Assembly (NCBI GenBank): GCA_043771685.1
Contig: JAYVGX010000034.1
Span: 11,690-75,689 of the forward strand
From: Minisyncoccota bacterium
Lineage (GTDB): Bacteria; Patescibacteriota; Minisyncoccia; Phycocordibacterales; UBA9973
Direction: 5' to 3'
Length of the DNA stretch: 64,000 nt
Shown: positions 28,806-45,862 of the stretch, piece by piece
How positions within the stretch are numbered: the first letter of the stretch is position 1
How the letters are laid out: each line of letters starts with the position of its first letter
The notes under the pieces: model-generated
The model's input: the letters and a program-made list of their open reading frames with translations, nothing else
What the model was told of the DNA's origin: nothing
The model's database searches: none
Program-made: the position numbers and the translations under genes

Positions 28806-29321
28806 TTAAATACTAAACCCCATTATCATTGGTATGATCATTATTCCTAAAACTAGTAGTAACATTATAAATTTTGCGATAGCTTTATTTAATTTAGTTT
28901 GATTAAAGTTTTTATACCCAGCATAAACACCATGCAAACCTAAAATATCATCAATACCTTTAACCTGAACTATTTGAAAAAAAGGTAATTTTGATAAAAA
29001 ATAAATAAAAGCTGAATATGTAATCATAAAAATTACTATTATTTTTAACATTATATATTCATATACTTCATGAATAAATTGTATTTCAATATTAATATAA
29101 TAAAAATAAAATATCAGATCAATAATCAATCCAGCAAGTGAAACAAAAATTAAAATAAAATTTATCTTTGATATAGGCTTTGTTTCTGTTTTAGGTAGTT
29201 TTTGTATTTTCTTTCCTGTTTTAATTCTCATAAAAATAGAACCAACTACTAAAAGTATTAATATAATTCTTATTGTAATAATTAAAAAATTTTCCATTGT
29301 AATATTATACCTTAAATTCAA
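28806..29321 (-). CDS. Hypothetical Ile-rich polytopic membrane protein.
   Basis: 4-5 predicted TM helices. It overlaps the ychF start by 17 nt. Confidence 0.3.
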   Translation of the reverse strand: MNLRYNITMENFLIITIRIILILLVVGSIFMRIKTGKKIQKLPKTETKPISKINFILIFVSLAGLIIDLIFYFYYINIEIQFIHEVYEYIMLKIIVIFMITYSAFIYFLSKLPFFQIVQVKGIDDILGLHGVYAGYKNFNQTKLNKAIAKFIMLLLVLGIMIIPMIMGFSI

Positions 29322-30414
29322 TTACATCGCCATCTTTAACAATATACTCTTTGCCTTCGGTGCGAACTTTGCCTTTCAACCGTGCCTCACCATAAGAACC
29401 AGCGTCTAATAAGTCGCTCCAGAAAACTATTTCAGCTCTGATAAATTTGTCTTTAAAATCGGTATGGATGGCTTGGCCTGCAACTGGTGCGGTGCTACCT
29501 TTGGCTATTGTCCACGCGCGAGTTTCCTCGACTCCGGTTGTAAAATATGTATCGAGCCCTAGTAATTTGTAACAACCAGAAATCAGGTCATTTATACCGT
29601 CATGCTCACCACCGAGTTCACGACGAAACATTTCTTTTTCTTCACCTTCGAAGTCTTTTAGTTCGTCTTCGATTTTTGCATCGATGAGTATAAACTGTGA
29701 GCCACTTTTTAAAATGTCATCAGTAAGTTCTTTGAAATACTCTGGCTTTTCTTCATCGAGATTTTTCACTCCAGCTTTTTTATTTAGACCATAGATCATC
29801 GGCTTCATTGTTAACAAATTCAATTGTTTTACTTTCTTTAATTCTTCTTCTGTTGTTTCAACAATATTTGCCAACTTACCTTGTTCTAAAATTTGTTCGA
29901 TTCGCTTTAGAACAGTTTCTTCTATGATAGCCTCTTTGTCGCCTCTTTTTACGTCTTTTTGTAAATTGTTTATTCTCTTGGTGACAGTTTCGAAATCGGC
30001 AAGTATTAGCTCCAAGTTTATAACAGTCATATCTCGCACTGGGTCTACATTGCCGTAAACGTGAGCTATCTCGGTTGCACCGCCAGCAATCGGGAAAAGA
30101 CGCACCATGTGTAGGATGGCATCCGTTTCTCGGATATTTGAGAGGAATTTATTACCTAGGCCTTCACCTTTACTTGCACCCTCGACGAGCCCTGCGATGT
30201 CGACGAATTCTACAACGGCTGGTATCGTCCGATTGGTTTTTGAAAAGTCTGCGAGTTTATATAGTCGGTCATCAGGCACAGGAACTATACCAACAGATGG
30301 GTCGATAGTACAGAAAGGATAGTTTTCTGCTGGAACACTCTTTTTTGTAAGCGCATTGAACAATGTCGATTTACCGACATTTGGAAGACCTACGATTCCT
30401 ATAGATAGTGACAT
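29305..30414 (-). CDS. ychF: Ribosome-binding ATPase YchF (Obg-family).
   Basis: IGIVGLPNVGKSTLFNALT G1 motif and a C-terminal TGS domain (...GKEYIVKDGDVIEFKV). Confidence 0.9.
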   Translation of the reverse strand: MSLSIGIVGLPNVGKSTLFNALTKKSVPAENYPFCTIDPSVGIVPVPDDRLYKLADFSKTNRTIPAVVEFVDIAGLVEGASKGEGLGNKFLSNIRETDAILHMVRLFPIAGGATEIAHVYGNVDPVRDMTVINLELILADFETVTKRINNLQKDVKRGDKEAIIEETVLKRIEQILEQGKLANIVETTEEELKKVKQLNLLTMKPMIYGLNKKAGVKNLDEEKPEYFKELTDDILKSGSQFILIDAKIEDELKDFEGEEKEMFRRELGGEHDGINDLISGCYKLLGLDTYFTTGVEETRAWTIAKGSTAPVAGQAIHTDFKDKFIRAEIVFWSDLLDAGSYGEARLKGKVRTEGKEYIVKDGDVIEFKV

Positions 30415-30508: not shown

Positions 30509-31441
30509 ATGAACGAATTAAAGACACTAAAGAAAGCAAATTTCCATTTACATCTCACTGGAGCTTTAACTGCGGATGATTTAAGATATTTATCTAAAAT
30601 TACAAAGATTGATATATCCTTATTCGAACCACTGGAAAATAAGTATATATTCCAAAATAATACTATTTGGGATATAGCAAAAAAAATTATATCCACAGAA
30701 AAAGGCCTGTGCGAGGCAATTAAATTAGTCTTACAAAGAGAGGTAGATGATAATGTAATATATGTCGAAATAACAATAAATCCATTTGGTTTAATACATA
30801 GGGGTATGAAAATACCTTCTATTATTAATGGAATAAAATTAGGTTGTGCTTTTGGAGAAACTATAGGAATAAAATGTAAGATTAAATTTGGAATTAATAG
30901 AAAAGATGGAATTGAATCTGTTCAAGCAGTAAATGAAGTGTTCAACGCTTGTCCTGAAGATTTACGACTTTGCATTGATCTTAATGGCAATGAAAGAAAG
31001 TACCCAACAATATTATTTTTAAATGATTTTAAAAAGCTTATAGCTAACAAAATACCTGTAAGTTTACATGTAGGAGAATTTATAGGATTAAACCATTCTC
31101 TATTAAATACTGTCAACATCAAACCAAAAAGAATAGCCCATGCAGTAGCATTCCAAGATCACCCAAAAATATTGAATAAAATTTTAAAAAATAAAATACT
31201 AATAGAATTATCCCCTATCTCAAATAATAAAACTGGATCAATAAAAAATATTCAGGATCACCCAATCAAGGAATTAATCCGAAAAAATGTTCTCATAGGT
31301 ATAGGAAGCGATGACCCTGCTTTCTTTAAATCCTCAATGACACTAGAACTTGAAGCGATTCATTTAATGGGAATACCAATCGCTAAAATTATTGAAGTAA
31401 ACAATAAAAGCCTAGAAATAGCTGGTATTCAGCTATTATGA
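30509..31441 (+). CDS. Adenosine/adenine deaminase family metal-dependent hydrolase.
   Basis: HLHL (HxH metal site), SLHVGE (HAGE), IAHAV and SDDPAFF (TDDP) motifs in canonical order. Confidence 0.7.
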   Translation: MNELKTLKKANFHLHLTGALTADDLRYLSKITKIDISLFEPLENKYIFQNNTIWDIAKKIISTEKGLCEAIKLVLQREVDDNVIYVEITINPFGLIHRGMKIPSIINGIKLGCAFGETIGIKCKIKFGINRKDGIESVQAVNEVFNACPEDLRLCIDLNGNERKYPTILFLNDFKKLIANKIPVSLHVGEFIGLNHSLLNTVNIKPKRIAHAVAFQDHPKILNKILKNKILIELSPISNNKTGSIKNIQDHPIKELIRKNVLIGIGSDDPAFFKSSMTLELEAIHLMGIPIAKIIEVNNKSLEIAGIQLL

Positions 31442-32167
31442 TTTTTTAAAATCATAATATACTTTTGAGTCTAATTCGTTTAAAAAATTTAAAACTTTAT
31501 TTTTGACTTTCAAAGAAGAAAGCCCACTACCATAATTTTTCATTTTTAATTTTAATAGTTCCTTTGCTTTAATTTTTAAATTTAAGTTTCTATCAAATAC
31601 ATCACATATATCATCCCTATTCTTAGGAAGAATGTCATAAAAAGCAAGTGCATAAATAGTACTACTTAAAGAAAGTTTCAATAGTCTTCTTTTAAGAATG
31701 TCTTCATCTAAAGAAGAAATCATAAGCTTTCGTGCATTGTACTTTAATGAGTTTATTACTTTTATACATTCTTCCTTGAGTTCATAATCAGAAAAAATAT
31801 TATCATCAAATAATTTTTTTCCATATATCAATTTACCATACATTAGAATCTCCTTTTGAATAAAAACAGCTCTATTATTATGCCAAAATAATTTATCTCG
31901 TGTACCAATCATTTCATCAACAGTATGAATACTAATATCCAATTTTATTCCGTTATTTTTGTATTTTTGATTTAGCGTTTTTATAAATTCCAAATTATTA
32001 ACACTTAATTTTTTTTCAAAAACAATAATAAGATCGATATCACTCAGGCTTCCGAAAGCTTTATATAGAGTACTTCCATATACATATATAGAAACGATAT
32101 TGTGAAGAGAATTAAGTAAATCTGTCTTTAGAAGGTCTAGTATTTTAATTCTTTGTTTGATATTCAT
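31436..32167 (-). CDS. Pol-beta-superfamily nucleotidyltransferase (minimal NTase with helical C-terminal domain; KNTase/Lnu/LicD-like).
   Basis: YVYGSTLYKAFGSLSDIDLIIVF matches the GS-x(9-13)-DxD NTase signature. Confidence 0.55.
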   Translation of the reverse strand: MNIKQRIKILDLLKTDLLNSLHNIVSIYVYGSTLYKAFGSLSDIDLIIVFEKKLSVNNLEFIKTLNQKYKNNGIKLDISIHTVDEMIGTRDKLFWHNNRAVFIQKEILMYGKLIYGKKLFDDNIFSDYELKEECIKVINSLKYNARKLMISSLDEDILKRRLLKLSLSSTIYALAFYDILPKNRDDICDVFDRNLNLKIKAKELLKLKMKNYGSGLSSLKVKNKVLNFLNELDSKVYYDFKKS

Positions 32168-32172
32168 AATAT

Positions 32173-32658
32173 CTATATCAAATTATCTTTAATTGCTTTC
32201 AAAATCATTGGCTTGGCAATAGGAGATATTTTTACATTATCCAAATCTTGGATATCTACAAATTGAGATCCTAAAGAATCTTCTCCGTCGGCACCAATCT
32301 TAATATCATCAGAAAAAAGTGATACTAGAAAATACGTTCCCGTATGATGAAAGTTGAGTAGAACTTCTTTCGCAGTTTTATATTCACAAAAATATTCATT
32401 CATACTCAAAAAATTCAAATCTTTAATTTCACAACCAACTTCTTCGATAAATTCTCTCCTTAATGCCTGTTCTAGAGTTTCATTTTTTTCTATCTTACCT
32501 CCAGGCAGATCAAACATTCCTTCATAAGGGCCTCTACTTTTTTTTATAAGTAACACCTTTAAATTTTTTATATAAATTCCATACACTCCCACATGTGCCC
32601 ACAATTCTAGTTCTTTATTCATATTTTTGAAAATTAGTTTTAATACTCTCTTTTGCAA
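32173..32658 (-). CDS. NUDIX hydrolase.
   Basis: Nudix box GGKIEKNETLEQALRREFIEEVG. Confidence 0.75.
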   Translation of the reverse strand: MQKRVLKLIFKNMNKELELWAHVGVYGIYIKNLKVLLIKKSRGPYEGMFDLPGGKIEKNETLEQALRREFIEEVGCEIKDLNFLSMNEYFCEYKTAKEVLLNFHHTGTYFLVSLFSDDIKIGADGEDSLGSQFVDIQDLDNVKISPIAKPMILKAIKDNLI

Positions 32659-33697
32659 TTCTTGTCAAATTTGTAATTGTATTTTTAGCCAAGAAAGAAA
32701 TTCTATCTTGCTCCTTATCATCAAGCAACTGAACTTTAAAAATACAGTTAATGAATTCAAGTTGATTATTGTACAAAAAACCATTATTATTATTAAAAAT
32801 TAAATCCATATGCCCCTCTACATTTGAAACTATCGGAATCACCCCTGCTTGCATTGCTTCTATTAAAGAAAATGGTAACCCCTCTATTACGCTATTTGAA
32901 ACAAAGAACTTAGAAACCAATAAGTAAGACATAACTTCTTCTGGAGATATTCTTCCTAAGAAATTAACAGTTGGATATTTTTTTCTAAGCTTCGTCAACT
33001 CCCTGCCATCACCTATCATAATTATTTTATCTAACATATTTAGGATTTTAAAAATGTCCAACAGTTGATAGACCCCTTTATCCCTAACCATCCTTCCAAC
33101 ATAGATAAATTCATATTTTTTTTTCTTCTCAAACGAGGCAACCTCTATAACTTTAAAATTTGGACATAAAATAATTTTTTCTGGTGGTACTTTGTATTTT
33201 TTATTTAATAAATAACATTCTGATGGTCCGCATGCTAAATAATAATCTGTATTCTTGTATAATAGTTTTTCAAAAAGAAATTCTATAAGTTGATGGAATC
33301 TTTTCTTACGTTTAATACCTATACACTGTGGGGCATGGTAGTAATTTTTAATTAATTTTCTGTTGTACAAAAAACGACATATTTTCCCTGAATATTCTGT
33401 AAAACTAATTACAATATCGGGTTTATTATTCTTAAAAAACCTCCCAAGATAAAAAACATCGGACAAAATATAATGAAGTTTTCGGCGAAGTGGTAAATGA
33501 ATAATTTTACCGTATTTTATTAAAATTTGCTCATGCTCAATTTGCTGTTCTCCGTATCTATTTCTACTTTTTTCTGGAAAAATAAAATTCAATTCAAATC
33601 CCAAATTTTTTAATTCTGGCGATAAAACAAGAATCGCCTGAAAAATACCAACATATGGACATTCAGTTATTATAAAAATCTTATTTTTCTTCTTCAT
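32615..33697 (-). CDS. Family-1/GT4 glycosyltransferase.
   Basis: C-terminal EGLPFSLIEAMQAGVIPIVSNVEGH motif typical of GT-B retaining glycosyltransferases. Confidence 0.7.
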   Translation of the reverse strand: MKKKNKIFIITECPYVGIFQAILVLSPELKNLGFELNFIFPEKSRNRYGEQQIEHEQILIKYGKIIHLPLRRKLHYILSDVFYLGRFFKNNKPDIVISFTEYSGKICRFLYNRKLIKNYYHAPQCIGIKRKKRFHQLIEFLFEKLLYKNTDYYLACGPSECYLLNKKYKVPPEKIILCPNFKVIEVASFEKKKKYEFIYVGRMVRDKGVYQLLDIFKILNMLDKIIMIGDGRELTKLRKKYPTVNFLGRISPEEVMSYLLVSKFFVSNSVIEGLPFSLIEAMQAGVIPIVSNVEGHMDLIFNNNNGFLYNNQLEFINCIFKVQLLDDKEQDRISFLAKNTITNLTRIAKESIKTNFQKYE

Positions 33698-34562
33698 ATA
33701 GTGAAAAAATATATGCTAAATCTTTTTGAACTTCTAATTCATAGCCTTCGGGTTTTCTTTTCACAAAAGCAGCGCAATGTTCTAGTGGAATAATTGGAAG
33801 AAATATTGATATTTTCTTTTCTAATTCATCTTTAGAAATTTTTGTGTTATGAGCATATTTATCTACTATTTCTCTTAATACGAGACCCTTATCCATTCCA
33901 TGCTGCACAACACAATCATAAATTAGTTTGGCTAAATCTTGAGCTGGATCACTAATATTTGAATACTCCCAATCTATTAAACTCGGTTTTCCTTCTTCTG
34001 GAACAAGAAGATGCCTTAATCTTAAATCTCTATGAACTATAGAGAAATATTTTGTTGCGAGCTTGTCAATTTTTGCAAGTATCCACTCAGAAACTTCCCT
34101 GTCTAAATCAAAACTCCCACTTACCGTTTCTATTCTATCTCCGGTAAATTTTCTTACATACGAATTATATTCACTAGCTTTTGTTCTAGTTCTTAAAACT
34201 GGTTGATCAGTTTTAATTAGTGAATGTAGCTCAGAAGCACTCTCTATTAAATAAGCAAGAACTTCTTCTTTTGTAGGTTGTTTTTTTACATCAACATATT
34301 CCATTTTTATATAACCCTCATCAACAGATGCTGATTTAACTTCTGGAACCCTAAAAGAGTCTAAAGACGTAAATAAAGTATTTGTCAGCCAACTTATTTC
34401 ATTTCTCATCTCATAACTATTAGGAATATGAGCTTTAATTAAATAAACTAATCCATTTTCTTCAACTCGTCTTGTCTCATGCCATTGTTTAAAATTTTCC
34501 ATATCTAGTATAGATATTAACACAAAAATATAATCGTGTAAATATGTTGTACTGTTAACCAT
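33681..34562 (-). CDS. Choline/ethanolamine-kinase-like phosphotransferase (APH/ChoK fold, LicA-like).
   Basis: Brenner-type HRDLRLRHLLV and the IDWEYSNISDP motif (IDxEYS characteristic of choline kinases/APH). Confidence 0.55.
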   Translation of the reverse strand: MVNSTTYLHDYIFVLISILDMENFKQWHETRRVEENGLVYLIKAHIPNSYEMRNEISWLTNTLFTSLDSFRVPEVKSASVDEGYIKMEYVDVKKQPTKEEVLAYLIESASELHSLIKTDQPVLRTRTKASEYNSYVRKFTGDRIETVSGSFDLDREVSEWILAKIDKLATKYFSIVHRDLRLRHLLVPEEGKPSLIDWEYSNISDPAQDLAKLIYDCVVQHGMDKGLVLREIVDKYAHNTKISKDELEKKISIFLPIIPLEHCAAFVKRKPEGYELEVQKDLAYIFSLYEEEK

Positions 34563-34809: not shown

Positions 34810-35790
34810 CTACTTTAACATCTGAGTTACGAGCGCAGTCATTTGGTCTTTTTTGTTTGGATTACTTTCAGCGATGAGCAATGTAAGCGCGGTCAAGCTG
34901 GCAGGGTTAATATTGCGAGATTTTTTAGCACGGGCTTTACGTAAAAACCAAATAAATGAAAAAGCTCCGGAACGCTTGTTCCCGTCTACATACGGATGAT
35001 TTTTGACCATAAAATAAAGTAAGTGTGATGCCTTTTCTTCGATACTTGGATACACATCTTTACCACCAAATGATTGCATAACATTACCTACGATACCTTC
35101 GACGCTTCCAGTATTTCTTTCTTGTGCAAAGATATCGGTAGCTTCATCTTTTCTCAAAAGTTCATTTCGAAAGCTTGAAATAGCTTGGGTTAATTCTTCC
35201 CCATTTAGTTTAACTGATTTTTTAGTTGTACCGATACTTTCTAAATTGTCGTGGTCATATGCATCCAGTGATACCCACGTAGATGAGAATTCTTTCACTA
35301 ATTCTAGTATTGCCTTTGGATCGAGAGTGACGTGTTCAGGTAGTAGATTCTGAATATCGCCTACTGCTTTCATAAAAGAATCATAATTCTTTCCAATCTG
35401 CTTGCGGTTTATTGTGTAGCCTTTGGTGATATGTTCTTTCAATGTTTTAGTAGCCCAGATGCGAAACTGAGTACCTATTACAGAGTTAATCCTATATCCA
35501 GTAGCGATAATCAAGTCTAAATTATATAATTTTACAGTTCTTTTGATTTCTCTTGAGCCCTCAATTTGAACTTGTAAGGATTCCTTACAAGTTGCTTTAC
35601 TACTTAATTCTCCATCCTTATAAATATTATTAATATGCAAAGTTATGTTTTGCGGAGTAACATCAAACATTTGAGCTATCTGCGCCTGCGTAGCCCAAAG
35701 TGTCTCGTGCGAAAAATCCCCACGGAGCTCGAGTGCCCCATTTTTAGCTTGATAGATTATCAACTCTTTATTTTTTGTAATCTTTTTCAT
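34810..35790 (-). CDS. RhuM-family N-terminal domain fused to a C-terminal Fic/Doc domain.
   Basis: N-terminus LDLIIATGYRINSVIGTQFRIWATKTLKEHI is the RhuM signature. C-terminus NHPYVDGNKRSGAF is the Fic/Doc motif HPFx(D/E)GN(G/K)R. Confidence 0.7.
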   Translation of the reverse strand: MKKITKNKELIIYQAKNGALELRGDFSHETLWATQAQIAQMFDVTPQNITLHINNIYKDGELSSKATCKESLQVQIEGSREIKRTVKLYNLDLIIATGYRINSVIGTQFRIWATKTLKEHITKGYTINRKQIGKNYDSFMKAVGDIQNLLPEHVTLDPKAILELVKEFSSTWVSLDAYDHDNLESIGTTKKSVKLNGEELTQAISSFRNELLRKDEATDIFAQERNTGSVEGIVGNVMQSFGGKDVYPSIEEKASHLLYFMVKNHPYVDGNKRSGAFSFIWFLRKARAKKSRNINPASLTALTLLIAESNPNKKDQMTALVTQMLK

Positions 35791-35891
35791 AAATTTACTT
35801 ATCCCACAGTGAGCATCTTTCCGTGTAGTCAGCTTGCTCTACTACTGCAATTATACCATTTTTGTTATCGTAAATCACTACGGATAATAAA

Positions 35892-36173
35892 CTATTGGTT
35901 AACTTTAACTACGAGTCCTATGCTTGCTAACATATCTGCAACTCTTTCACAACTTTCCTTATCTCCTTCGTAAACTTTAGCGCTACCGAATTGATCTACC
36001 ACATATGCATAATGAGATGCTGTGTCACTTGAACATCCGATAGCACACATTAGTTGTTCTATCACATCATCAAAAGTATGACAATTACAATTAAAAAGAA
36101 TCACATTCCAGATCAATTCTGGTTTTATCGAGGTTATTGTTTTTAGATTAATTTTAGTTATCGTTTCAGACAT
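35892..36173 (-). CDS. clpS: ClpS-like Clp-protease adaptor, 4 nt downstream of hsdR.
   Basis: IWNVILFNCNCHTFDDVIEQLMCA...ASHYAYVVDQFGSAKVYEGDKESCERVADML aligns to the ClpS core (YKVILLNDDYTPMEFV...AVH..G.A.C.V...E.AE.KV). Confidence 0.55.
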   Translation of the reverse strand: MSETITKINLKTITSIKPELIWNVILFNCNCHTFDDVIEQLMCAIGCSSDTASHYAYVVDQFGSAKVYEGDKESCERVADMLASIGLVVKVNQ

Positions 36174-36176
36174 ACA

Positions 36177-39100
36177 CTATGCGGGTTGAAATTCTCTATA
36201 AACACGGACTGTTTCCATATAAATAGATTCTATTAAGCGTTCTGTCTGCATTACTTCGGTGATTCCTTTTTGAATCAAAAGAAGTCTTACATTCTGACGA
36301 ATACGAGCTTTGATGGTTTCGTTGTTTGTCCAATCAATAGTTAAGTCTCTACGAATACGCTTCGTAAGTTCCTTAACAAAGTCTTTTATATCTATTCCTG
36401 ACTTTTTAAGATCAGGGTCTGTTTGTAAGGTGTCGTAGAAAGTTATCTCTTCAGGTGAAAGTCCGAGCGAATGGCTTTCTTCATCAAGTTTCTTGATTTC
36501 ATCTGCAATCCCAAGGAGTTGTTTAATTACCTCCGCTGAACTAATAATATTATTCTCATACTTCTCAATAACTTTTTTTAGTAAATCAAGCATAGTCTCG
36601 TAACGAGCTTTATTATTTTTTGAACGAGCTTTAATTTCAGTTTCCAGCAATTTTCTTGTTGCGTCTATAGCAAAATTTTTGAATTTTACATTTTTTATTT
36701 CTTCCTCAAATTTTTTATCAAAAATTGATATTTGTTTTGTATTTTTACCTTCACCAAACAAATTAATAACCCCTTCTGCTTGCATAGATTGATCAAGTAA
36801 ATTTCTTATCGCACTCTCAGCCTCTTCAGGGAAAATGGTTCCAGGAATATAACCTATTTTTTTAATATATTCTTTTATCGCTTGGTAGAAAGTAATATTT
36901 GATGAAAATACCAAAGCTTTTTCGTCAGGCATAATTGATGCGTGAAGTTTCGAAATAAGTGAGACAAGTTCAAAATATTTCATTTTTCTATCATCTGATA
37001 AAACAGAATTATTTGAGATAACACATTCACTTGCTTCTTGTAAAAGTAGAGAAAGTTCCTGACCACTTTTTTGTTTATATGAATTAAAATTTAGATTACC
37101 AAAATAACCTTTTATCTTTTCATCAAGTTCTTGTATTTTTTGAACAACATCGTCAACTTGAATAATCGCATTCTGATCAATCTTTCCATCATACATCGAT
37201 AGTGCTTTCTTTAAATTTTCTGCAAGTCCAATATAATCCACGATCAATCCAGCTGGCTTATCTTTATGTACTCTGTTTACACGAGCAATTGCCTGCATGA
37301 GACCATGATTCTTTAATGGTTTATCAAAATACATTGTATGTACGCTTGGTACATCAAAGCCGGTAAGCCACATATCACAAACTATAACAAGACGTAATGA
37401 GTCTTTATTGCTTTTAAATCTCTTTTCAAGATTTTTAGTATTACGTTCTTTTTGCATAGAATCTTTATACTCATCGCTATTTGAAATTACCACAGCACAC
37501 TCTGGGGCATCCTTAATTTTTTGTATTTCTTGATATAAAGATACCGCAATTCTACGACTCATAGTTACAATCATACCCTTGCCTTCAATTGGTCTTTGAT
37601 TAAAATGCTGTACAATATCTTTTGCAATTTGTTCAATGCGACTCTGCGTACCAACAACTTTTTCAAGAACAGTCCATTCTTTTTGAATTTTTGTTTTTTC
37701 CTCTATAACAATATCACCAAGAAGTTCATCAAATAATGAATTTATGTCTTCTTTTGCAATACCGAGTGGTACGAGTCGTGCTTCATAAATAATATCGACG
37801 GTAGCACCATCTTTAACTGCTTCACTTAATTTATATTCACTAACAATATTACCGAAGACTCGCTGTGTATTCTGACCATCTTCTTTCGCAACAGGTGTAC
37901 CAGTAACAGCCAAGAAACTTGCTTGGGGTAATGCTTTTCGTACGTTTCCAGCAAGTCCGCTATATTGTGTACGGTGAGCTTCGTCAGCAAGAACAATAAT
38001 ATTTTCTCTTTGTGAGAAATAACTAAATTCTTCTTTATAGTCTTGAAATTTTTGAATTGTTGAAAAAATAAGCCTACTAATTCCATTATCAAGTTGCTTA
38101 ATCTGGTCACGTAAATCAAGAATACTTCCTGCTCGATGAGATACATCCTTGTACCCAACTCGTGCGAAAAGTTTTGAAAGCTGGTCATCAAGGTCTTCAC
38201 GATCAGTCAAAAATAGATATGCAGGACTTTTAAGTTCCTCAATGTTCTTAGTCTTATTCACATAGAAAACCATAGAGAGTGATTTGCCAGATCCTTGTGT
38301 GTGCCAAAAAACCCCAATCTTATGATCTTGTTCTCCACGCACTGCACGGAGTGTACTTTCAACCGTTGTATTTACTCCATAGTACTGATGGTACAAACAC
38401 ATCTTTTTTGTAAATGTTACCGCTTCACCATCTCCATCTGCTTCAAAAACAAAGAAGTTTTGCAAAACATCCAACAGTCGTGTTCGATCAAATAATCCTT
38501 TAGCTAGTACTTCTAGTTGATTAGTATTCTTTGGTGCGTCAGTAGGGGTTGTAATACCTTTCCATGTTCCATATCTTTCCCATGAAGATGAAATGGTTCC
38601 GTGTCGCGCGTTAATAAGATCGGAAAGACCGATAACTTGATTATATAAAAATAGTTTTGGTATTTCTTTCTTATATCTTTCTACTTGTCTGTATGCTTCA
38701 CCAATTGTAGCTCCACCGTGTACAGCGCTCTTTAATTCAAAAAGACCGATAGGTAATCCATTAATGAAAACAACTACATCAAGACGACAAGTAGAATCTA
38801 TTCCCTGAACTGTAAACTGTCTTACGGCTAAAAACTCATTTGAATCTGGATTATTAAAATCAACAAGTTTTACTAGGTCAGTTTTTTCTTCTTCGTTTCC
38901 ACGCCAAGAAGTTTTCTTGCCATTCACAAGCCATGAGTAAAATTCTTTATTACCAAGCATTAGATCATTGTGATGATAATCTGCAATATCTTTTACCACC
39001 ATTTCTGCTTGCTCTGCAGGAAGTGATGGGTTGATTCTACGAATAGCACCAAGGAGTCTGTCTTTCAAAACAACACCTCGAAAATCCTCACGCTCTGCAC

Positions 39101-39209
39101 GAGGTTGCCCAGGATTTATGTCTGGGCCATATACATACTCATAACCCTGACCTTGTAGCCATTCGATGAGAGATTGTTCTGTTAAGTTGTTTTCGTTTAG
39201 TGTGTTCAT
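36177..39209 (-). CDS. hsdR: Type I restriction enzyme R subunit.
   Basis: 1010 aa. N-terminal nuclease domain, SF2 helicase motifs (TQGSGKSL; DEAHRTQYS), and a type I R C-terminal domain. Confidence 0.9.
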   Translation of the reverse strand: MNTLNENNLTEQSLIEWLQGQGYEYVYGPDINPGQPRAEREDFRGVVLKDRLLGAIRRINPSLPAEQAEMVVKDIADYHHNDLMLGNKEFYSWLVNGKKTSWRGNEEEKTDLVKLVDFNNPDSNEFLAVRQFTVQGIDSTCRLDVVVFINGLPIGLFELKSAVHGGATIGEAYRQVERYKKEIPKLFLYNQVIGLSDLINARHGTISSSWERYGTWKGITTPTDAPKNTNQLEVLAKGLFDRTRLLDVLQNFFVFEADGDGEAVTFTKKMCLYHQYYGVNTTVESTLRAVRGEQDHKIGVFWHTQGSGKSLSMVFYVNKTKNIEELKSPAYLFLTDREDLDDQLSKLFARVGYKDVSHRAGSILDLRDQIKQLDNGISRLIFSTIQKFQDYKEEFSYFSQRENIIVLADEAHRTQYSGLAGNVRKALPQASFLAVTGTPVAKEDGQNTQRVFGNIVSEYKLSEAVKDGATVDIIYEARLVPLGIAKEDINSLFDELLGDIVIEEKTKIQKEWTVLEKVVGTQSRIEQIAKDIVQHFNQRPIEGKGMIVTMSRRIAVSLYQEIQKIKDAPECAVVISNSDEYKDSMQKERNTKNLEKRFKSNKDSLRLVIVCDMWLTGFDVPSVHTMYFDKPLKNHGLMQAIARVNRVHKDKPAGLIVDYIGLAENLKKALSMYDGKIDQNAIIQVDDVVQKIQELDEKIKGYFGNLNFNSYKQKSGQELSLLLQEASECVISNNSVLSDDRKMKYFELVSLISKLHASIMPDEKALVFSSNITFYQAIKEYIKKIGYIPGTIFPEEAESAIRNLLDQSMQAEGVINLFGEGKNTKQISIFDKKFEEEIKNVKFKNFAIDATRKLLETEIKARSKNNKARYETMLDLLKKVIEKYENNIISSAEVIKQLLGIADEIKKLDEESHSLGLSPEEITFYDTLQTDPDLKKSGIDIKDFVKELTKRIRRDLTIDWTNNETIKARIRQNVRLLLIQKGITEVMQTERLIESIYMETVRVYREFQPA

Positions 39210-39213: not shown

Positions 39214-39789
39214 TTATTTTCCAGTTCCGCTTCTTATCGTTTCAATTATTTGAGTTGTTGGCACAGGACTATTCCCGTTTTTAAGATACCCAGTTTCCTG
39301 AACATCAAACATTGTTCTTGTAACCTGTAATAAGATTGCATTCTTTGTCTCTGCGTCATTATCAGATTCCGTACCTCTTACAGAGTCTAAAATTCTTTGA
39401 TGGGAATTAAGAATCAATTGTCTATGTTTATTTATATAATACATGTTCATTTCAGCAGAATAATTTCTAGAGAAGTGGGCGACCAAGTAACCTCCCGCAG
39501 AAATGATCACTAATTTTAATAAAACATTTTGTTCTAAAATTGTATTCCAAATTCTTTGAAAGAAAGTTCCATCACCATCTATGGATAACTGTTTCCCAAA
39601 AACGAATATACAAGCCATAAGGGCTGTAAAAATAAGTGAGCTAAACATTCCTAGTGAATTCTTATCAGCCTTCTGTTTATTACCCAAAAAAGAGTATTTT
39701 TTGAAACTGAATATTTTCCATCTAAATAAATTAAACCCTTCTTCTGTGAATTCACCCTCAGCCATTCTTTCAAATTCTCTACCGTACAA
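39214..39789 (-). CDS. Hypothetical two-TM protein, likely the C-terminal portion of a frameshifted larger gene.
   Basis: TM hairpin LGMFSSLIFTALMACIFVFG ... LLKLVIISAGGYLVAHF. The frame stays open upstream to 39881 without a start codon. Confidence 0.4.
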   Translation of the reverse strand: MYGREFERMAEGEFTEEGFNLFRWKIFSFKKYSFLGNKQKADKNSLGMFSSLIFTALMACIFVFGKQLSIDGDGTFFQRIWNTILEQNVLLKLVIISAGGYLVAHFSRNYSAEMNMYYINKHRQLILNSHQRILDSVRGTESDNDAETKNAILLQVTRTMFDVQETGYLKNGNSPVPTTQIIETIRSGTGK

Positions 39790-39881: not shown

Positions 39882-40286
39882 CTAATTCTTTAGATTTTTT
39901 TCTAAATCTTTTTGTCTAACATCGTTTGCTGGATCTGCAAATTGTAAATAAGTTAAAATTGGATTTAATTGAGATATAATAGATTCTTCCTTTTGTCTTA
40001 CGAAAGCTAATTTTGATTCTCTTTGATTTACATCACTGTAACTATCAATAATTTGTGAATTAAGTTCAGAGATTAGGTTAGTCAAAACATTCTCAAAAGT
40101 TCTCTCATAATTAGGAATCTGTTCTAGTGTTAGTTTATAGCTAAAAATTCTATCGATGATAGTTTTTATTCTTTGTAAATTAGGTTCAATGCTTGTTAAC
40201 TCACCAGCTTCTCCAAGGTTATTTCTAAGAAGTTTTTGCCAATCCAAGTTCTTGTATTTTTCTATGATTTCTTGATTTATTGCCAT
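39882..40286 (-). CDS. Hypothetical helical protein of 134 aa, likely the N-terminal portion of the same frameshifted gene.
   Basis: Ends ...QKDLEKNLKN* just after an A7 tract. An A8 tract would read through as ...QKDLEKKSKELEDNLKTVNELTKK... into the 39214-39789 frame. Confidence 0.4.
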   Translation of the reverse strand: MAINQEIIEKYKNLDWQKLLRNNLGEAGELTSIEPNLQRIKTIIDRIFSYKLTLEQIPNYERTFENVLTNLISELNSQIIDSYSDVNQRESKLAFVRQKEESIISQLNPILTYLQFADPANDVRQKDLEKNLKN

Positions 40287-40291: not shown

Positions 40292-41527
40292 TTAAATTAA
40301 TTTTGCTAATAATTGATCTCTCGACTGTTTAAGATTTTTAGATTCATTTTGTATAACATTCATCATTTGAAAAAGAGGTTTTATTTTTTTAATAAATTCA
40401 CCAAAAATTTCTTTTTCAGGAACAGTAATTTTTATATTCTTGATTGTTTTTGAATTAACGGCTGTTGCAATCGATGAAGTACTTCCTAATGAATCATAGT
40501 TATAACTTTTCATTATAAGGTATAGATATTCTGTAGATATAAACGAGCCATCTCTAATCTTGAGATGAGCGATTGCTTCATTTGATAACATTTCTTCTGT
40601 CGTAATAGCAACCTTACCCATAGTCAACTTAAAACTAACAACTAATGTCCCCTTAGGGATTATGGGGATATTAAATTTATTAACCGCTTCTCGGGTCAGA
40701 CATTCATCGGTATGTGATATAAAAATACCTCCAACTCCGAGATCTCTAATAGAGATCCATTTTATATCTTTAGGATTTTTTGAAAACCATTCTTGTTCCT
40801 GCCTTGGAGGAGTTCTTCCAATTGAAATATCACATATATTATCAAGACTATCAATTGTCCATCCCTCAGGAATTTCTCCCATCTCGCTCTCAATCATTTT
40901 CACTTTTTCATATCCAGGAAATTTGAAATTCACAAACCATTCATTAAAAATAGTCTGAGCAGTAAGTTCGAGATTTTTAATTATTATATTATTATTTTCA
41001 ATCTTTGAATCATATGCATTTAAGATTGAAGCAATTTTTTCCTGAGTCTCAAAATCTGGAATATAGAATGTATAATCTCGCAACTGACCTAAGGATACAT
41101 TTTTTATTGTGCTACCGTTAGCATTACTGTCTATGTGTTTTTGAAATCTCTGATCTAGTAAAACATAATACATATAATCTAAAACAAACTCCCTCTTCAC
41201 ATTAATATAACAAGCACTTTTACCAAGAATACATTTTTCACCTCTATATTTTGCCAAATTACCGATTGTCCCATTAATTGATAGCAAGAGCGTTTCTGTG
41301 CCTAAATCTTTTTTATGTTTTAGGTACTCTGACTCGCTAATTCTTTTGGTTTCTTTCTTAATTGAAATGTGCCCATTGTCCAAATTATTACCATTAATAA
41401 AATAGAATTCACCATTATCCTCATATTGAGGAGTTCCGTGCAACCCATCTCCAATTCTAATTGCAATATCAGCTAATGTAACTTCTTTTCTTTTAGTCTT
41501 ATTTATTTGTTCTAATAATTTACTCAT
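40292..41527 (-). CDS. hsdS: Type I restriction-modification specificity subunit.
   Basis: Two target-recognition domains, each followed by conserved helical repeats (...LGQLRDYTFYIPDFETQEKIASILN...; C-terminal ...LKQSRDQLLAKLI). Confidence 0.85.
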   Translation of the reverse strand: MSKLLEQINKTKRKEVTLADIAIRIGDGLHGTPQYEDNGEFYFINGNNLDNGHISIKKETKRISESEYLKHKKDLGTETLLLSINGTIGNLAKYRGEKCILGKSACYINVKREFVLDYMYYVLLDQRFQKHIDSNANGSTIKNVSLGQLRDYTFYIPDFETQEKIASILNAYDSKIENNNIIIKNLELTAQTIFNEWFVNFKFPGYEKVKMIESEMGEIPEGWTIDSLDNICDISIGRTPPRQEQEWFSKNPKDIKWISIRDLGVGGIFISHTDECLTREAVNKFNIPIIPKGTLVVSFKLTMGKVAITTEEMLSNEAIAHLKIRDGSFISTEYLYLIMKSYNYDSLGSTSSIATAVNSKTIKNIKITVPEKEIFGEFIKKIKPLFQMMNVIQNESKNLKQSRDQLLAKLI

Positions 41528-41531: not shown

Positions 41532-42428
41532 TTATTCTTTAAATTTCATCCTAATATCCCTATCCAAAGGCAGTTGTTTTAAAAATGTCAGTATTTCTTG
41601 TTGTGTCGGTTTTTTGACATTAGTAACAAAATAATCTTTTTGGAAAATCGGCTTTCCCTTCACTGCACACTCGTCTACTAGAGATTCAATAAACTCTGCG
41701 GGAACAGCGTCAAATGACAAGAGGGCGGTGATAAGCACATATTCATGAAATGCTTCAGCATCTTCAATTTCAACTTTTATGCGTGTAGAAATTGCTCTCA
41801 GCGTCTTGATAAATGAGATTGCTGATTGTTTTTTAAAATTAAAATTCTTTTCAAATACGCATACGATAAAAAAGCGCATTTTGTTATTTTTTCCTCCTGA
41901 GGAGCTACCAATTAATGATTCACTTTCCCAGAGTTGATCCTCAACCATATCTACAACACCAGCTTTCTCATTCCAAACAAAGTTTCTATCATCTGAAATA
42001 GTATCCCTGATAATTCCAAATGTACTTTCTTTTTGTATTCCACATTCCTTAATAACAAAGGTATGCATTCGTATAAGTGTTTGAATAGTCATATCCGCCT
42101 GTTTTCGAGCAAATCTTTTTGATTCTTCATCTTGTAACTCAATCTCACCAGCAGAAACGACATATCCAAACTTGTCGCGATTTTCAGCATGATCAAGAAG
42201 TTGTAGTATCGGTTCGTCATCTAAAAATTGTTTTCGATTTTTCTTTATATACTCAAATGTAAAAGGATTTATTTCTGCTTCAACCACGAGAAAAACTCGA
42301 CTAATACTATCGTCTAAAATTCTCGTTTCTTCAGATAAACGAACTTGCGAATACGGACCGTCCTCACCCCACATTTTTTTGTAATCTGTTTGTGTGAGCT
42401 TTTTCTGTTGTTTGTTATCGTTTTTCAT
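41532..42428 (-). CDS. Hypothetical cytoplasmic protein of 298 aa embedded between rhuM and hsdS.
   Basis: Clean ORF tightly packed in the hsd operon (4-nt and 2-nt gaps). No family recognised. Confidence 0.4.
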   Translation of the reverse strand: MKNDNKQQKKLTQTDYKKMWGEDGPYSQVRLSEETRILDDSISRVFLVVEAEINPFTFEYIKKNRKQFLDDEPILQLLDHAENRDKFGYVVSAGEIELQDEESKRFARKQADMTIQTLIRMHTFVIKECGIQKESTFGIIRDTISDDRNFVWNEKAGVVDMVEDQLWESESLIGSSSGGKNNKMRFFIVCVFEKNFNFKKQSAISFIKTLRAISTRIKVEIEDAEAFHEYVLITALLSFDAVPAEFIESLVDECAVKGKPIFQKDYFVTNVKKPTQQEILTFLKQLPLDRDIRMKFKE

Positions 42429-42429: not shown

Positions 42430-43551
42430 TTATTTTTTATTTTTTTGAACTGTCAACTTTTTGTTGATACTTGATTTTTCCAAAAGTTTTTTTACTTCTT
42501 TGTCAAAATCAGAAATATGTTTTTTATCTTGCTCTACTCGATATTTTTCGTATTCTTGTAATGCTAGTGCTTCCGCCACTTCGTGACTAATTTTTCCATT
42601 ATCTTGTAATATTTGTTCCTCATTAAATTTCAAAAATGAATCGAGTTTTTTCACCCAATCTTTCATTTTCATGAGTATCCCTTTCTTTGCCTGTATTTCT
42701 GCATAGTCCAAATACATAGTCACAATTCTATTAAGAAAATCTAGTTCTTTTTCTTGTAAGTAATTTTTTGCTATAATTACATCATTTTCACGAATAAGAC
42801 CATTTGGTGAATTCTTCCAACTCATCAAGCCAATATTTTCTTTTTTACTACTAACTCTACTATAAACAATCTCTGCAGCGGTTTGACCCGTAATTGCAAA
42901 GTGTAATTTATTTTGTACGGTAGCAAAAAACAGTTTCGTTATTTTATTAGTAGGATCATAGTCTGCACTACATTGTGAATAAATATCAGTAACTTTCTGA
43001 TACATACGCCTTTCACTTGATCGAATGTTTCTTATTCTCGCAAGTTGTTCTTCAAAATAATCAATACCGAAAATAGTATCAGTATTTTTAAGTCTCTCAT
43101 CGTCCATAGTAAAACCTTTGATAATGTATTCTTTTAATCTTTCTGTGGCCCAAATTCTAAATTGTGTTGCTTGTGAACTGTTTACACGATACCCAACTGA
43201 TAGGATAGCGTCTAAATTATAAAATTTTACAAACTGATTTTGTGTTTTTCCTACAATAGCTCCATGGATAGTGGTATGTTCCAAAATGGAACTAACCAGT
43301 TTTTCGTCTAATTCTCCACTTTCGAAAATATTCTTTAAGTGTTTAGTGATTGCTGGTCTTTGTACTCCAAAAAGGAGAGCTATTTTTTCTTGTGTCAGCC
43401 AGATATTTTCATCACGCAAAAATATATCTACTTTTACCTTTCCATTTGGTGTGGTGTAGAGCAGAAACTCTGTAAAACTATTATTTGGTACAATTTTTGT
43501 AATCTTTTTTTTCATATAATTAAAATCCAAGTTCTTTAAGATTTTTCTCAA
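42430..43551 (-). CDS. rhuM: RhuM-family protein.
   Basis: NLDAILSVGYRVNSSQATQFRIWATERLKEYIIKGF. It overlaps the hsdM 3' end by 32 nt. Confidence 0.75.
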   Translation of the reverse strand: MRKILKNLDFNYMKKKITKIVPNNSFTEFLLYTTPNGKVKVDIFLRDENIWLTQEKIALLFGVQRPAITKHLKNIFESGELDEKLVSSILEHTTIHGAIVGKTQNQFVKFYNLDAILSVGYRVNSSQATQFRIWATERLKEYIIKGFTMDDERLKNTDTIFGIDYFEEQLARIRNIRSSERRMYQKVTDIYSQCSADYDPTNKITKLFFATVQNKLHFAITGQTAAEIVYSRVSSKKENIGLMSWKNSPNGLIRENDVIIAKNYLQEKELDFLNRIVTMYLDYAEIQAKKGILMKMKDWVKKLDSFLKFNEEQILQDNGKISHEVAEALALQEYEKYRVEQDKKHISDFDKEVKKLLEKSSINKKLTVQKNKK

Positions 43552-45313
43552 TTTCTTTTTCTAATTCACGACCAACAGTAAAAGCTTCTCGAAGTTCACT
43601 TGAAAGTTTCTGCATTTTTTCTTCAAAAGAAATTCCATCATCTTCTACATCAGTAAGCCCAACATATCTGCCAGGAGTAAGAGTGTATCCGTTCTTTTTT
43701 ATTTCTTCTAGGTTGGCAGATTTACAGAAGCCTGAAATATCTTCATATTTCCCAGCCCCTGATTCTCCACGCCATGCACGGACTGTATCTGTAATTTTTG
43801 CAATCTGTTCTTTACTAAAGATAACTTGCTTGCGAGAAATCTGTTCAAATGTATCTCGTGCATCAATGAATAATGTTTCTCCCTTGCGTTTGCGAAAACG
43901 GTCACCATTTTTATTTTTAGATAAGAACCATAGAGACACGGGTAGTCCAACATTATAGAAAAGTTTGGATGGACAAGAGATGATGACATCTACCATATCA
44001 GCTTCAATAAGCTTTTGACGAATTTCTCCTTCTTTACCTGATACAGCAAGTGCTCCATTGGGCATAACGAATCCTGCCTGACCATTAGGTGAAAGGTGGT
44101 GAGCGAAGTGTTGTACCCAAAGAAAGTTTGCATTACCTGATGGAGGTGTTCCTAAAAATATTCTTGGATCATTGTCAGAAAGTTTTAATGGTTCCCATTC
44201 TGCGTTAAAGGGAGGGTTCGCAATTACGAAATCTGCCTGTAGGTGTGGGAACTTATCTTGATAGTAAGTATTACCAAGTTCAATCTTTCCAGAGAGTCCA
44301 CGAATAGCTAGGTTCATCTTGCAAAGGCGAAGTGTAGTTTGGTTGCTTTCTTGTCCACTAATAGCAAGTTTTGATGGATCCATTTTATGGTCTCGCAAAT
44401 ACTCACCCATAGATACAAACATTCCTCCACTGCCACAAGCAAAGTCTGCCACACGAGCATTTTCGTAAGGTTGAAGTATTTCAACAAGTAATTTAACGAT
44501 TGATCTTGGTGTAAAAAACTCGCCTCCACGCTTTCCCTCTGATGAAGCAAATTGACCTAGGAAGTATTCATAGATTCTTCCAAGAATATCTTTCTCCCGA
44601 TCAAAGTCATGATCAAAAGATATTTGTGAAAAAATATTAACAAGTTCACCAAGAACGGTATGATCAAGATTTACTTTTGTGTATACACGAGGTAGGACAT
44701 TTTCAAGTTGTACAGGATTATCTTTCTCAATCAACTCCATTGCGGTATCCAAAACCTTTCCGAGATCAGGACTCATGGTTTTTGTTTGCAAAAATTCCCA
44801 ACGAGATTTTTCTGGAACATAGAATACCCCTTCAGCTGTATAAAAATCTTTTGTTTCAAGAATAGACTTCCGAGCTTCTTCTGTTGGGACATAGAAGTCT
44901 TCATCCTTCGGGTCTTTAGTTTTTAAAGTTAGAACTTCACGCTGTTTATAAAATGAGTCTGATATATATTTCAAAAATAAAAGTCCAAGTACAATATTTT
45001 TATACTCGGACACGTCAACATTACCTCGTAATTTATCTGCCGCCATCCAAAGCTCTTTTTCAAAGCTGAGGTCGTGGTGTTGGTTTTTATCTAAAACTTT
45101 CTTTGTGACGCTCTTTTGCTGTTCACTAATACGATTCTGTATTTCTTCTGAGAGCGAAGCCTTTGGGATTAAGTAAGTTGGTTTAGAGGGGTCTCCTATA
45201 TTTTCAGCTGTAATTTCACCCTTTTTGATCTTTTGATGAACGGCTATACGGCTAATACCCAACATCTTTGCGAGTTGTGTAGGGGTTACAAATTGTGATT
45301 TATCGATTGACAT
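43520..45313 (-). CDS. hsdM: Type I restriction-modification N6-adenine methyltransferase subunit with an N-terminal HTH.
   Basis: HsdM N-domain, SAM-binding DFACGSGGMF, and catalytic FVIANPPFN. Confidence 0.9.
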   Translation of the reverse strand: MSIDKSQFVTPTQLAKMLGISRIAVHQKIKKGEITAENIGDPSKPTYLIPKASLSEEIQNRISEQQKSVTKKVLDKNQHHDLSFEKELWMAADKLRGNVDVSEYKNIVLGLLFLKYISDSFYKQREVLTLKTKDPKDEDFYVPTEEARKSILETKDFYTAEGVFYVPEKSRWEFLQTKTMSPDLGKVLDTAMELIEKDNPVQLENVLPRVYTKVNLDHTVLGELVNIFSQISFDHDFDREKDILGRIYEYFLGQFASSEGKRGGEFFTPRSIVKLLVEILQPYENARVADFACGSGGMFVSMGEYLRDHKMDPSKLAISGQESNQTTLRLCKMNLAIRGLSGKIELGNTYYQDKFPHLQADFVIANPPFNAEWEPLKLSDNDPRIFLGTPPSGNANFLWVQHFAHHLSPNGQAGFVMPNGALAVSGKEGEIRQKLIEADMVDVIISCPSKLFYNVGLPVSLWFLSKNKNGDRFRKRKGETLFIDARDTFEQISRKQVIFSKEQIAKITDTVRAWRGESGAGKYEDISGFCKSANLEEIKKNGYTLTPGRYVGLTDVEDDGISFEEKMQKLSSELREAFTVGRELEKEIEKNLKELGF

Positions 45314-45373: not shown

Positions 45374-45862
45374 CTATTCTAAATAAGAGTCGAAGTATAT
45401 GGCGTGACAGGTGTATCCACCGGGGTTATTTACTAGGTAGTCTTGATGGTAGTCTTCGGCTTTGTAGAAAGTGCCGAGTTGCTCGAGAGTGGTCACCACT
45501 TTATCATTCCAGCGTTTTGAATTGTTTACAATATTTATAAAATCCTCCCCTTCCTTTTTCTCTTCCTCGTTCCCATAAAATATCGCAGAGCGATATGAAG
45601 TACCCTTGTCATTGCCTTGTTGATTTAAAGTTGTCGGATTATGAATCTGAAAGAAAAAGTCCAAAAGATTTTTATATGATGTTTTTGTCGGATCATATTC
45701 TATCTCTACTGCTTCGGCATGACCGGGATGATTCTCATAACTTGGGTTATTATTTTCCCCTCCAGTGTAACCGACTTCGGTATTTACTACTCCTGGTTGT
45801 TTACGAATCAAATCCTCCAGCCCCCAGAAACATCCACCTGCGAGTATTATTTTTTTATTCAT
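45374..45862 (-). CDS. msrA: Peptide methionine sulfoxide reductase MsrA.
   Basis: [11 protein letters not shown] active-site motif. Confidence 0.9.

Follow-up and report, generated by a model that had tools for sequence, protein, structure and literature searches.

Bacterial ClpS is the textbook N-recognin, the N-end-rule adaptor of ClpAP and ClpCP, and in proteobacteria it is encoded in a clpS-clpA operon. A different tie between Clp proteases and restriction, the ClpXP-dependent alleviation of restriction by EcoKI in E. coli, which acts on HsdR, was reportedly worked out in the Murray laboratory. The current study concerns a stretch of 64,000 nt from a Minisyncoccota bacterium (assembly GCA_043771685.1, contig JAYVGX010000034.1, nt 11,690 – 75,689), referred to as the window and numbered from its first letter, in which an open reading frame (ORF) for a ClpS-like protein directly follows hsdR, the last gene of a type I restriction-modification (R-M) operon. 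An earlier note on this DNA had proposed a dedicated adaptor that delivers HsdR, or a toxin of the same island, to a Clp protease. The reading preferred here, to which a rough probability of 0.5 is given, is that the gene encodes a vertically inherited ClpS homologue with a remodelled binding pocket, situated at the edge of a defence-island hotspot and in this organism co-expressed with hsdR; the association is best read as one with the variable island as a whole and not with HsdR.

The likeness to EcoKI alleviation is conceptual, in that a type I restriction subunit is kept in check by a Clp protease and self-restriction is prevented, but ClpX is used in E. coli, ClpS is not needed and no adaptor gene is linked to hsd, while the link in the window is one between genes. 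A closer parallel in layout is the 'immigration control region' of E. coli (hsd/mrr/mcr), a chromosomal hotspot for defence islands. Both have variable restriction and defence cassettes at a fixed position, exchanged without an integrase or a tRNA; they differ in that the anchor here is a ClpS-like gene, that deeply diverged clades of Patescibacteria are spanned, and that upstream of the island no conserved anchor turned up. Literature searches returned no report on the ClpS clade described below or on an association of ClpS with R-M or defence islands, Patescibacteria included, and for Clp components in organisms of the candidate phyla radiation (CPR) they returned only genes of the host of TM7x.

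A ClpS fold with an altered pocket

The gene and the parts of its product that matter here are as follows.

nt 35892..36173, minus strand: ClpS-like gene of the Cys-x-Cys-His (CxCH) type; ATG start, 93 amino acids (aa) plus stop codon
residues 1–17 of the product: disordered N-terminal extension
residues 21–93 of the product: ClpS core
nt 36078..36092, minus strand: codons for the loop N28-C29-N30-C31-H32, which replaces the acidic N-degron-binding loop of canonical ClpS

The product is a ClpS-family protein, though not a standard ClpS, and the ClpS fold claimed in the earlier note is borne out by sequence profile, structural model and structure search. Residues 21–82 match Pfam PF02617 (ClpS) with 44.2 bits (E 1.6e-11; gathering cutoff 23). 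An AlphaFold2 model calculated on 27 homologues (53–96% identity) has a mean predicted local distance difference test score of 82.9, with values above 90 for residues 21–93 and below 50 for residues 1–17, and presents the alpha/beta fold of ClpS (three strands, three helices). In a Foldseek search of the PDB the top 38 matches were all ClpS chains (probability 1.0; root-mean-square deviation, rmsd, 0.9–1.5 Å), the top structures being those of E. coli (2wa8), M. smegmatis (9b1p) and Arabidopsis ClpS1 (7d34), with an rmsd of 0.9 Å to each of the latter two. The C-terminal domain of L7/L12 was matched more weakly (E ~5e-3 and 2.2–2.6 Å, versus ~1e-5 and 0.9 Å for ClpS). The N-terminal extension, some 17–20 residues long, is disordered in the model and poorly conserved over residues 1–17 of the family alignment, which is consistent with the flexible hand-off segment of canonical ClpS. 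No PADLOC model matched the protein.

With canonical ClpS (E. coli, Caulobacter, M. smegmatis, plant ClpS1) the window protein thus has the Pfam domain, the core and the disordered extension in common, but it reaches only about 26 bits where the NCBIfam equivalog cutoffs are 117–160 (in full, 26.1, 25.6, 24.9 and 15.2 bits against cutoffs of 158, 160, 117 and 86). The departure noticed in the earlier note, that the pocket residues are unlike those of canonical ClpS, is confirmed both by HMMER alignments and by invariance across the clade. The motif NCNCHTFDDV (residues 28–37) stands opposite NDDIHNFTYV in a Plasmodium ClpS and NDEVHTYEQV in UBR2, with C29, N30 and C31 opposite D, D and I of the Plasmodium protein and D60 opposite its His. 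Among proteins of solved structure, the ClpS-homology domain of UBR2 also gives the best match by sequence (E 1.3e-4, HMMER). The UBR1/UBR2 domains have in common with the window protein the pattern F-N-x-x-x-H-T-[FY]-x-x-V-I and a Cys aligned with C47, but they keep the acidic N-D-E and are part of E3 ligases of ~1,750 aa, whereas the window protein is a stand-alone polypeptide of 93 aa with C-x-C.

Residue numbers of E. coli ClpS were assigned by our own alignment to the E. coli sequence and from the literature on that protein. On this basis we take the loop N34-D35-D36-Y37-T38 to correspond to N28-C29-N30-C31-H32, with the Asn kept and D35→C, D36→N and T38→H as the substitutions of note, while M62 is presumably replaced by A56 and H66 by D60, the latter position remaining His in the Elusimicrobia members. 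On helix 3, the two acidic residues through which E. coli ClpS touches the N-domain of ClpA, E79 and E82, are assumed to be represented by E73 and E76, which are mostly conserved, and K84 by V78.

Across the family alignment NCNCH is invariant (27/27 homologues), as are the longer pattern L-F-N-C-N-C-H-x-F-D-x-V-I and C47, with C75 and D60 nearly so. A profile search of 1.84 billion cluster representatives gave 776 relatives at E ≤ 1e-3, 223 of them at E ≤ 1e-10. In a set of 177 relatives, made up of the best 150 of that search and the results of the 27-homologue search, the signature is [N/D]-C-x-C-H, most often NCNCH (39), followed by NCDCH (12), NCYCH (7), NCECH (6) and others.

The corresponding Asp of M. 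smegmatis ClpS makes a salt bridge to the amino terminus of the substrate, and a bridging metal ion is bound by the corresponding His (10.1101/2024.06.12.598358). Since these Asp and His residues are exchanged for Cys, Cys and His plus Asp, the CxCH pocket would suit a cargo chemistry other than the classical one, possibly metal-assisted, and a metal site formed by C29, C31, H32 and D/H60 is possible. A whole clade with Cys-x-Cys-His in place of the acidic residues that bind the amino group, and with the different cargo chemistry this implies, appears to have gone unexamined so far. A structural zinc site of four cysteines (C29, C31, C47, C75) was also considered and judged unlikely, because C47 is Val in one Elusimicrobia subgroup and because C47 and C75 are kept in a sister clade that has no C29 or C31.

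The junction with hsdR

nt 36177..39209, minus strand: hsdR, type I restriction subunit, 1010 aa (TIGR00348, 586 bits, E 8e-176)
nt 36174..36176, minus strand: TGT spacer of 3 nt between the hsdR stop codon (TAG) and the ATG of the ClpS-like gene, as read from the sequence

On the coding strand the junction reads ...CCCGCA-TAG-TGT-ATG-TCT. The adjacency described in the earlier note therefore stands, but the spacer is 3 nt and not the 4 nt given there. A scan around the junction found no promoter-like or terminator-like site above shuffled expectation, and a terminator scan of the 101-nt gap 3' of the ClpS-like gene found none there. Because of the short spacer and the lack of such sites at the junction, co-transcription of the ClpS-like gene with hsdR is the natural reading; the note's further suggestion of translational coupling is in keeping with this, and coupling is probable.

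The ORF is under purifying selection, since two loci (L010 and L011; L-numbers denote the loci compared) carry versions with 84.8% DNA and 91% protein identity between flanks that are unrelated on both sides. An overlapping ORF on the plus strand of the window (nt 35635-35973) was taken as spurious.

Restriction and defence genes upstream in Patescibacteria

The clade of the window protein, defined by at least 60% identity plus L097 and L098, provided 16 distinct contexts, 14 of them informative. The genes found upstream of the ClpS-like gene are listed here (MTase, methyltransferase; wHTH, winged helix-turn-helix).

window and L036 (a near-identical locus): type I HsdR, directly abutting
L003: N6_N4 MTase and MutH-like nuclease, with a 2-nt gap
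L005 and L012: type III mod/res, then an acidic 43-aa ORF and a wHTH gene
L001: DpnI-like, then three small ORFs; MazE, HTH, Fic and Fic follow the ClpS-like gene
L089: SNF2, DUF4391, MTase, Res/RE_endonuc
L090: HsdR-like (29% identity to the window HsdR), YgjP-like, PDDEXK_1, acidic 43-aa ORF
L175: ResIII plus Eco57I, 1336 aa
L176: type III Res, T5orf172, DUF2779, acidic 43-aa ORF
L011: GmrSD, PIN, PDDEXK_1, acidic 43-aa ORF
L097: Shedu SduA, NucS-like, PDDEXK_1, acidic ORF, S49 peptidase
L098: DNA MTase
L133: type IIG RM plus S, then a truncated 54-aa ClpS-like gene
L093: at a distance of 1.4 kb and on the other strand, hsdM, hsdS and Fic

The context of L008 is ambiguous. Restriction or defence genes lie upstream in 12 of the 14 informative Paceibacteria-type contexts. 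A second clade of Patescibacteria, less than 50% identical to the first and with a TPR gene preceding the ClpS-like gene, has them upstream in 7 of 9 informative loci, mostly on the opposite strand (HsdR, HsdM plus Fic, EcoRI-type MTase, GmrSD-HNH, AbiEii and other MTases). Taken together and as a raw count, the two clades have such genes within about five genes upstream in ~19 of 23 informative contexts, and the systems comprise R-M types I, II, IIG, III and IV, Shedu, Abi and Fic.

Two minor observations belong to these loci. In L133 (10001-10165) the ClpS-like gene is cut to 54 aa, with no continuation in any reading frame, and for this reason is likely to be a pseudogene. In L008 (5020-5889) and L097 (3427-4341) an NfeD/S49 serine peptidase gene lies directly upstream of the ClpS-like gene, the two being 58% identical to each other.

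It is this range of neighbours that speaks against an adaptor dedicated to type I HsdR or to the neighbouring Fic/Doc toxin. Such a protein would account for the 3-nt spacer and for the same arrangement in L036; type I HsdR-like genes occur upstream in L090 and L103 as well, these and the window/L036 locus being the only ones to have them, and Fic/Doc genes are found near the ClpS-like gene in the window, L001, L093 and L013. Yet orthologues at 60–78% identity are placed behind type II (MTase plus MutH-like), IIG, III and IV (GmrSD, DpnI-like) systems and Shedu, the L010 and L011 proteins stand behind entirely different systems in spite of their 91% identity, the pocket motif is invariant whichever system adjoins, and in Elusimicrobia the gene is found in housekeeping contexts. 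Because the neighbouring systems are too diverse, an HsdR-specific function is disfavoured; the comparative contexts largely refute it, the dedicated delivery of HsdR put forward in the earlier note finds no support, and very little credence can be given to it.

Polarity of the association and a wider adaptor role

A broader form of the same idea would make the ClpS-like protein a general controller of defence islands, which recognises restriction or defence nucleases, or a feature common to them, and hands them to a Clp-type protease. It would thereby limit self-restriction when a new system arrives or methylation lapses. The frequency of upstream restriction and defence genes (~19/23) is what such a controller would lead one to expect, and so is the polarity seen when all ORFs of all loci were screened by phmmer with 22 queries for R-M and defence proteins. 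Ten Patescibacteria loci have 8 kb or more on either side of the gene, and R-M homologues were found upstream (within 7.4 kb) in 8/10 of these and downstream in 0/10. The queries were drawn from the upstream neighbours, making self-hits circular, but not the cross-hits or the empty downstream flanks. The upstream association is also the only feature common to the two deeply diverged Patescibacteria clades; a nuclease gene abuts the ClpS-like gene both in L003, with a gap of 2 nt, and in the window, with one of 3 nt; and a precedent for the alleviation of restriction by proteolysis is the degradation of HsdR in E. coli, which depends on ClpXP.

A further point in favour of a general controller is the acidic 43-aa ORF of the list above (MDEEIFEIAKDNDLSLEEAEELQ..GLDADEALEV; 18 of 43 residues D or E, one basic), which occurs in seven Paceibacteria-type lineages, is absent from the window, and immediately precedes the ClpS-like gene in four of the seven, being found one or two genes further upstream in the other three. 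Its product could be a partner of the ClpS-like protein, a substrate mimic or a DNA mimic. Its positions are:

L005:5589-5720, acidic 43-aa ORF
L090:2562-2693, acidic 43-aa ORF
L093:4573-4704, acidic 43-aa ORF
L176:4949-5080, acidic 43-aa ORF
L011:5672-5800, acidic ORF
L181:141-272, acidic ORF
L097:3268-3423, variant of the acidic ORF

Several observations count against the broader role. The Elusimicrobia proteins have the NCNCH pocket in ribosomal and housekeeping contexts with no R-M matches, the R-M genes of the TPR clade are mostly on the opposite strand with other genes between, and no common degron is evident because the neighbouring nucleases are structurally unrelated. PADLOC has no model for the protein, IMG/VR contains no phage homologue of it, and the literature offers no report. 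The partners indicated by fusions and neighbours are TPR proteins, ankyrin repeats and a 188-aa family, with no nucleases among them. ClpS-like domains are fused to TPR (P0054) and to ankyrin repeats (P0076), and in P0080 to a homologue (36% identity, E 6e-32) of a 188-aa protein encoded directly downstream of the ClpS-like gene in L012:

L012:10270-10836, gene for the 188-aa protein

Since these three families are fusion partners of the ClpS-like domain, the fusions hint at protein-interaction partners rather than nucleases. On balance, control of defence nucleases in general is considered possible, though less likely than the hotspot reading. Equally tentative is the corresponding picture of the CxCH proteins as a general accessory of Patescibacteria defence islands, in which they would be adaptors, possibly metal- or thiol-dependent and possibly acting with the acidic 43-aa protein, that adjust the stability of defence nucleases of many unrelated kinds, restriction enzymes among them. 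If this picture were true, the islands would contain a built-in 'restriction alleviation' module in organisms that depend on DNA uptake.

Contexts outside the defence islands

The distribution of the family was drawn from scans of GTDB genomes and JGI metagenomes, together with our own ORF and hidden Markov model analysis. The CxCH group occurs in Patescibacteria (Paceibacteria, Nomurabacteria, and metagenome-assembled genomes, MAGs, labelled Taylorbacteria or Saccharibacteria) and in Elusimicrobia. A phage anti-restriction idea was considered and tested by a scan of the IMG/VR viral contigs, in which no homologue was found. Contexts are lineage-specific: a TPR gene precedes the ClpS-like gene in the Taylorbacteria/Saccharibacteria-labelled MAGs, while in Elusimicrobia it follows either rplM-rpsI or a SpoU methylase gene, in the latter case with genes for an SDR and a pseudouridine synthase after it.

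A sister group is found in Balneolaceae, Ignavibacteria and Melioribacteraceae. Its members resemble the window protein in overall sequence (37–47% identity, tblastn), in the H-T-F-D-x-V-I start of the helix and in having equivalents of C47 and C75, but they keep His66 and an acidic pocket ([N/D]-D-[D/E/N]-x-H-T-F-D-E-V-I), and their genes occupy fixed housekeeping contexts, either miaA-purS-ClpS-purQ or ClpS-ychF, without R-M genes within 10 kb. In the phmmer screen neither the Elusimicrobia loci nor ~70 sister-group loci gave any R-M or defence homologue. The place of the sister-clade gene between purS and purQ in Balneolaceae (L043, L044, L050 and others), or directly before ychF in Ignavibacteria and Melioribacteraceae (L088 and others), is in itself unusual for clpS.

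In contrast to the proteobacterial operon, the CxCH genes have no clpA or clpC beside them and in Patescibacteria lie next to defence islands. The earlier note had reasoned that the place beside hsdR would be coincidental if the protein were the only ClpS of the organism and its gene normally adjacent to clpA in relatives. Such adjacency is not borne out: a crude motif test (ORFs of at least 500 aa with Walker A and the DE[IV]EKA signature) detected no Clp/Hsp100 ATPase near the ClpS-like gene in any of 175 loci or in the window. One locus has what may be a trace of another degradation-tagging system in the lineage, a gene for a PafA-like Pup ligase (PF03136; L177:3408-4802) 3 kb upstream of a CxCH ClpS-like gene, and the same contig carries a PemK toxin gene.

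The housekeeping contexts and the absence of a neighbouring ATPase would also fit a protein that is no adaptor at all, but in which a fold of the ClpS/L7-L12 type with Cys-x-Cys-His serves metal or redox sensing linked to translation or the ribosome, the position behind hsdR then being irrelevant. Translation-related neighbours recur outside Patescibacteria (rplM-rpsI, SpoU RNA methylase, RluA-type pseudouridine synthase, MnmG/GidA), ychF adjoins the sister-clade gene and is also found close to the CxCH gene of the window and of L012, the fold does match the L7/L12 C-terminal domain, and the Cys/Cys/His signature is typical of metal ligands. Sensing of this sort could also draw on the metal ion in the pocket of mycobacterial ClpS, for which a preprint cites a link to the zinc-dependent turnover of a ribosome hibernation factor (10.1101/2024.06.12.598358). 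However, the similarity to ClpS is far stronger than that to L7/L12 in both E value and rmsd, the ClpS-typical disordered extension and the acidic helix with E73 and E76 are retained, and the gene-neighbour support for a ribosomal role is circumstantial. A role outside protein delivery is regarded as improbable.

Exchange of the island beside a retained gene

The loci that share a flank bear on how the island relates to the ClpS-like gene. The window and L012 have the order ClpS-like, ychF, Sua5, DUF1003, leuS and TPR in common, with the block in the same orientation relative to the ClpS-like gene (LeuRS 74% and YchF 73.5% identical), but upstream there is a type I system in the window and a type III system in L012. 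In both L181 and L012 metK comes after the ClpS-like gene. L089, L176 and L093 have the same downstream gene and unrelated upstream islands, and L010 and L011 resemble each other only over the ClpS-like ORF ±2 nt. Because the island has been exchanged while the ClpS-like gene was kept, the adjacency to hsdR is best read as reflecting the position of the island and not a partnership with HsdR.

The history and mechanism that we would propose for a vertically inherited homologue at the island edge run as follows. The CxCH clade would have been passed down vertically in Patescibacteria and Elusimicrobia, as suggested by its conserved, lineage-specific contexts, by the gene order common to the window and L012 and by the fixed sites of the sister-clade genes, its product presumably still acting as an adaptor, or cargo receptor, for an unfoldase of the ClpA/ClpC type. 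It would read something other than the Leu/Phe/Tyr/Trp N-degron, possibly through a thiol/His (metal-assisted) pocket, and would work with lineage-specific partners, the candidates being the TPR, ankyrin and 188-aa families found as neighbours or fusions. In Patescibacteria the gene would have come to lie at the downstream edge of a defence-island hotspot, the content of which (R-M types I–IV, Shedu, Abi, Fic/Doc, PIN/MazE/PemK) would be swapped between relatives while the ClpS-like gene stays, the current occupant in the window being the type I hsdM-hsdS-hsdR operon.

Some of the data sit uneasily with this history. The upstream link to defence genes persists across two Patescibacteria clades that are less than 50% identical and have no other synteny in common, which is hard to square with a purely positional accident. 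Three loci (the window, L001 and L010) have accessory or defence-like genes on the downstream side as well, placing the gene inside variable DNA with no clean border. Spacers of 2–3 nt to the last nuclease gene recur independently (window and L003), and the adaptor role would follow from homology only.

In Patescibacteria the ClpS-like gene marks a site at which Shedu, toxin-antitoxin modules and R-M systems of all types are gained and lost. Should the link prove functional, restriction enzymes would turn out to be subject to a new level of control, based on a protease, in organisms that rely heavily on R-M and on DNA uptake; should it prove positional, the gene would be of practical use as a signpost in the search for new defence systems in CPR genomes.

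The type I operon and the remainder of the window

The island genes upstream of hsdR, and the nearest features downstream of the ClpS-like gene, are given below, all on the minus strand.

nt 43520..45313: hsdM, type I methyltransferase, 597 aa (N6_Mtase, E 4.8e-102, plus HsdM_N)
nt 42430-43551: RhuM-family gene between hsdM and hsdS, 373 aa (PF13310, E 1.4e-106)
nt 41532-42428: ORF of 298 aa between the RhuM gene and hsdS, no Pfam or PADLOC match
nt 40292..41527: hsdS, type I specificity subunit, 411 aa (PADLOC Specificity_I, E 1.9e-83)
nt 39882-40286: ORF of 134 aa between hsdS and hsdR, no Pfam or PADLOC match
nt 39214-39789: ORF of 191 aa between hsdS and hsdR, no Pfam or PADLOC match
nt 34810..35790: RhuM-N/Fic-Doc fusion, 326 aa (Pfam RhuM plus Fic; PADLOC PDC-S23, E 5e-110)
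nt 29305..30414: ychF, first gene of the core block syntenic with L012 (ychF, Sua5, DUF1003, leuS, TPR)

The operon accordingly runs hsdM, RhuM, the 298-aa ORF, hsdS, the 134-aa ORF, the 191-aa ORF and hsdR, with the ClpS-like gene after it. The RhuM-N/Fic-Doc fusion, a candidate defence gene, lies 101 nt downstream of the ClpS-like gene. There are thus two RhuM-family genes in or beside the type I operon, the Fic/Doc-fused one being the PADLOC candidate PDC-S23/PDC-S05. A 17-nt repeat (TTTTTTGTAATCTTTTT) is found at the 5' ends of three island genes. Direct repeats were considered as island boundaries and turned out to be short stretches of similarity between the coding regions for RhuM N-termini. 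At the borders of the window's island no tRNA, integrase or att-like repeat was found, the only tRNAs being 28 kb away; with the tRNAs so distant and the repeats explained as coding similarities, there is no sign of site-specific integration. The large ORFs of the window that were scanned encode aminoacyl-tRNA synthetases, LepA, MurJ, an ABC transporter, TsaD and a TPR protein, with no Clp ATPase among them.

Between the ClpS-like/Fic region and ychF lies an accessory-looking run of genes (nt 30509-34562). The absence of this run from the syntenic locus L012 suggests that the window ClpS-like gene has variable DNA on both sides. The genes of the run that were scanned encode an APH-type phosphotransferase and a GT1/GT4 glycosyltransferase; a Nudix-like gene, a nucleotidyltransferase-like gene and a deaminase-like ORF on the plus strand are guesses made by eye. 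On the other side of the island, directly upstream of hsdM, there is a redundant methionine-sulfoxide-reductase cluster (nt 45374-48610), with separate msrA and msrB, a DsbD-TM/MsrA/MsrB fusion of 600 aa and a thioredoxin-domain protein.

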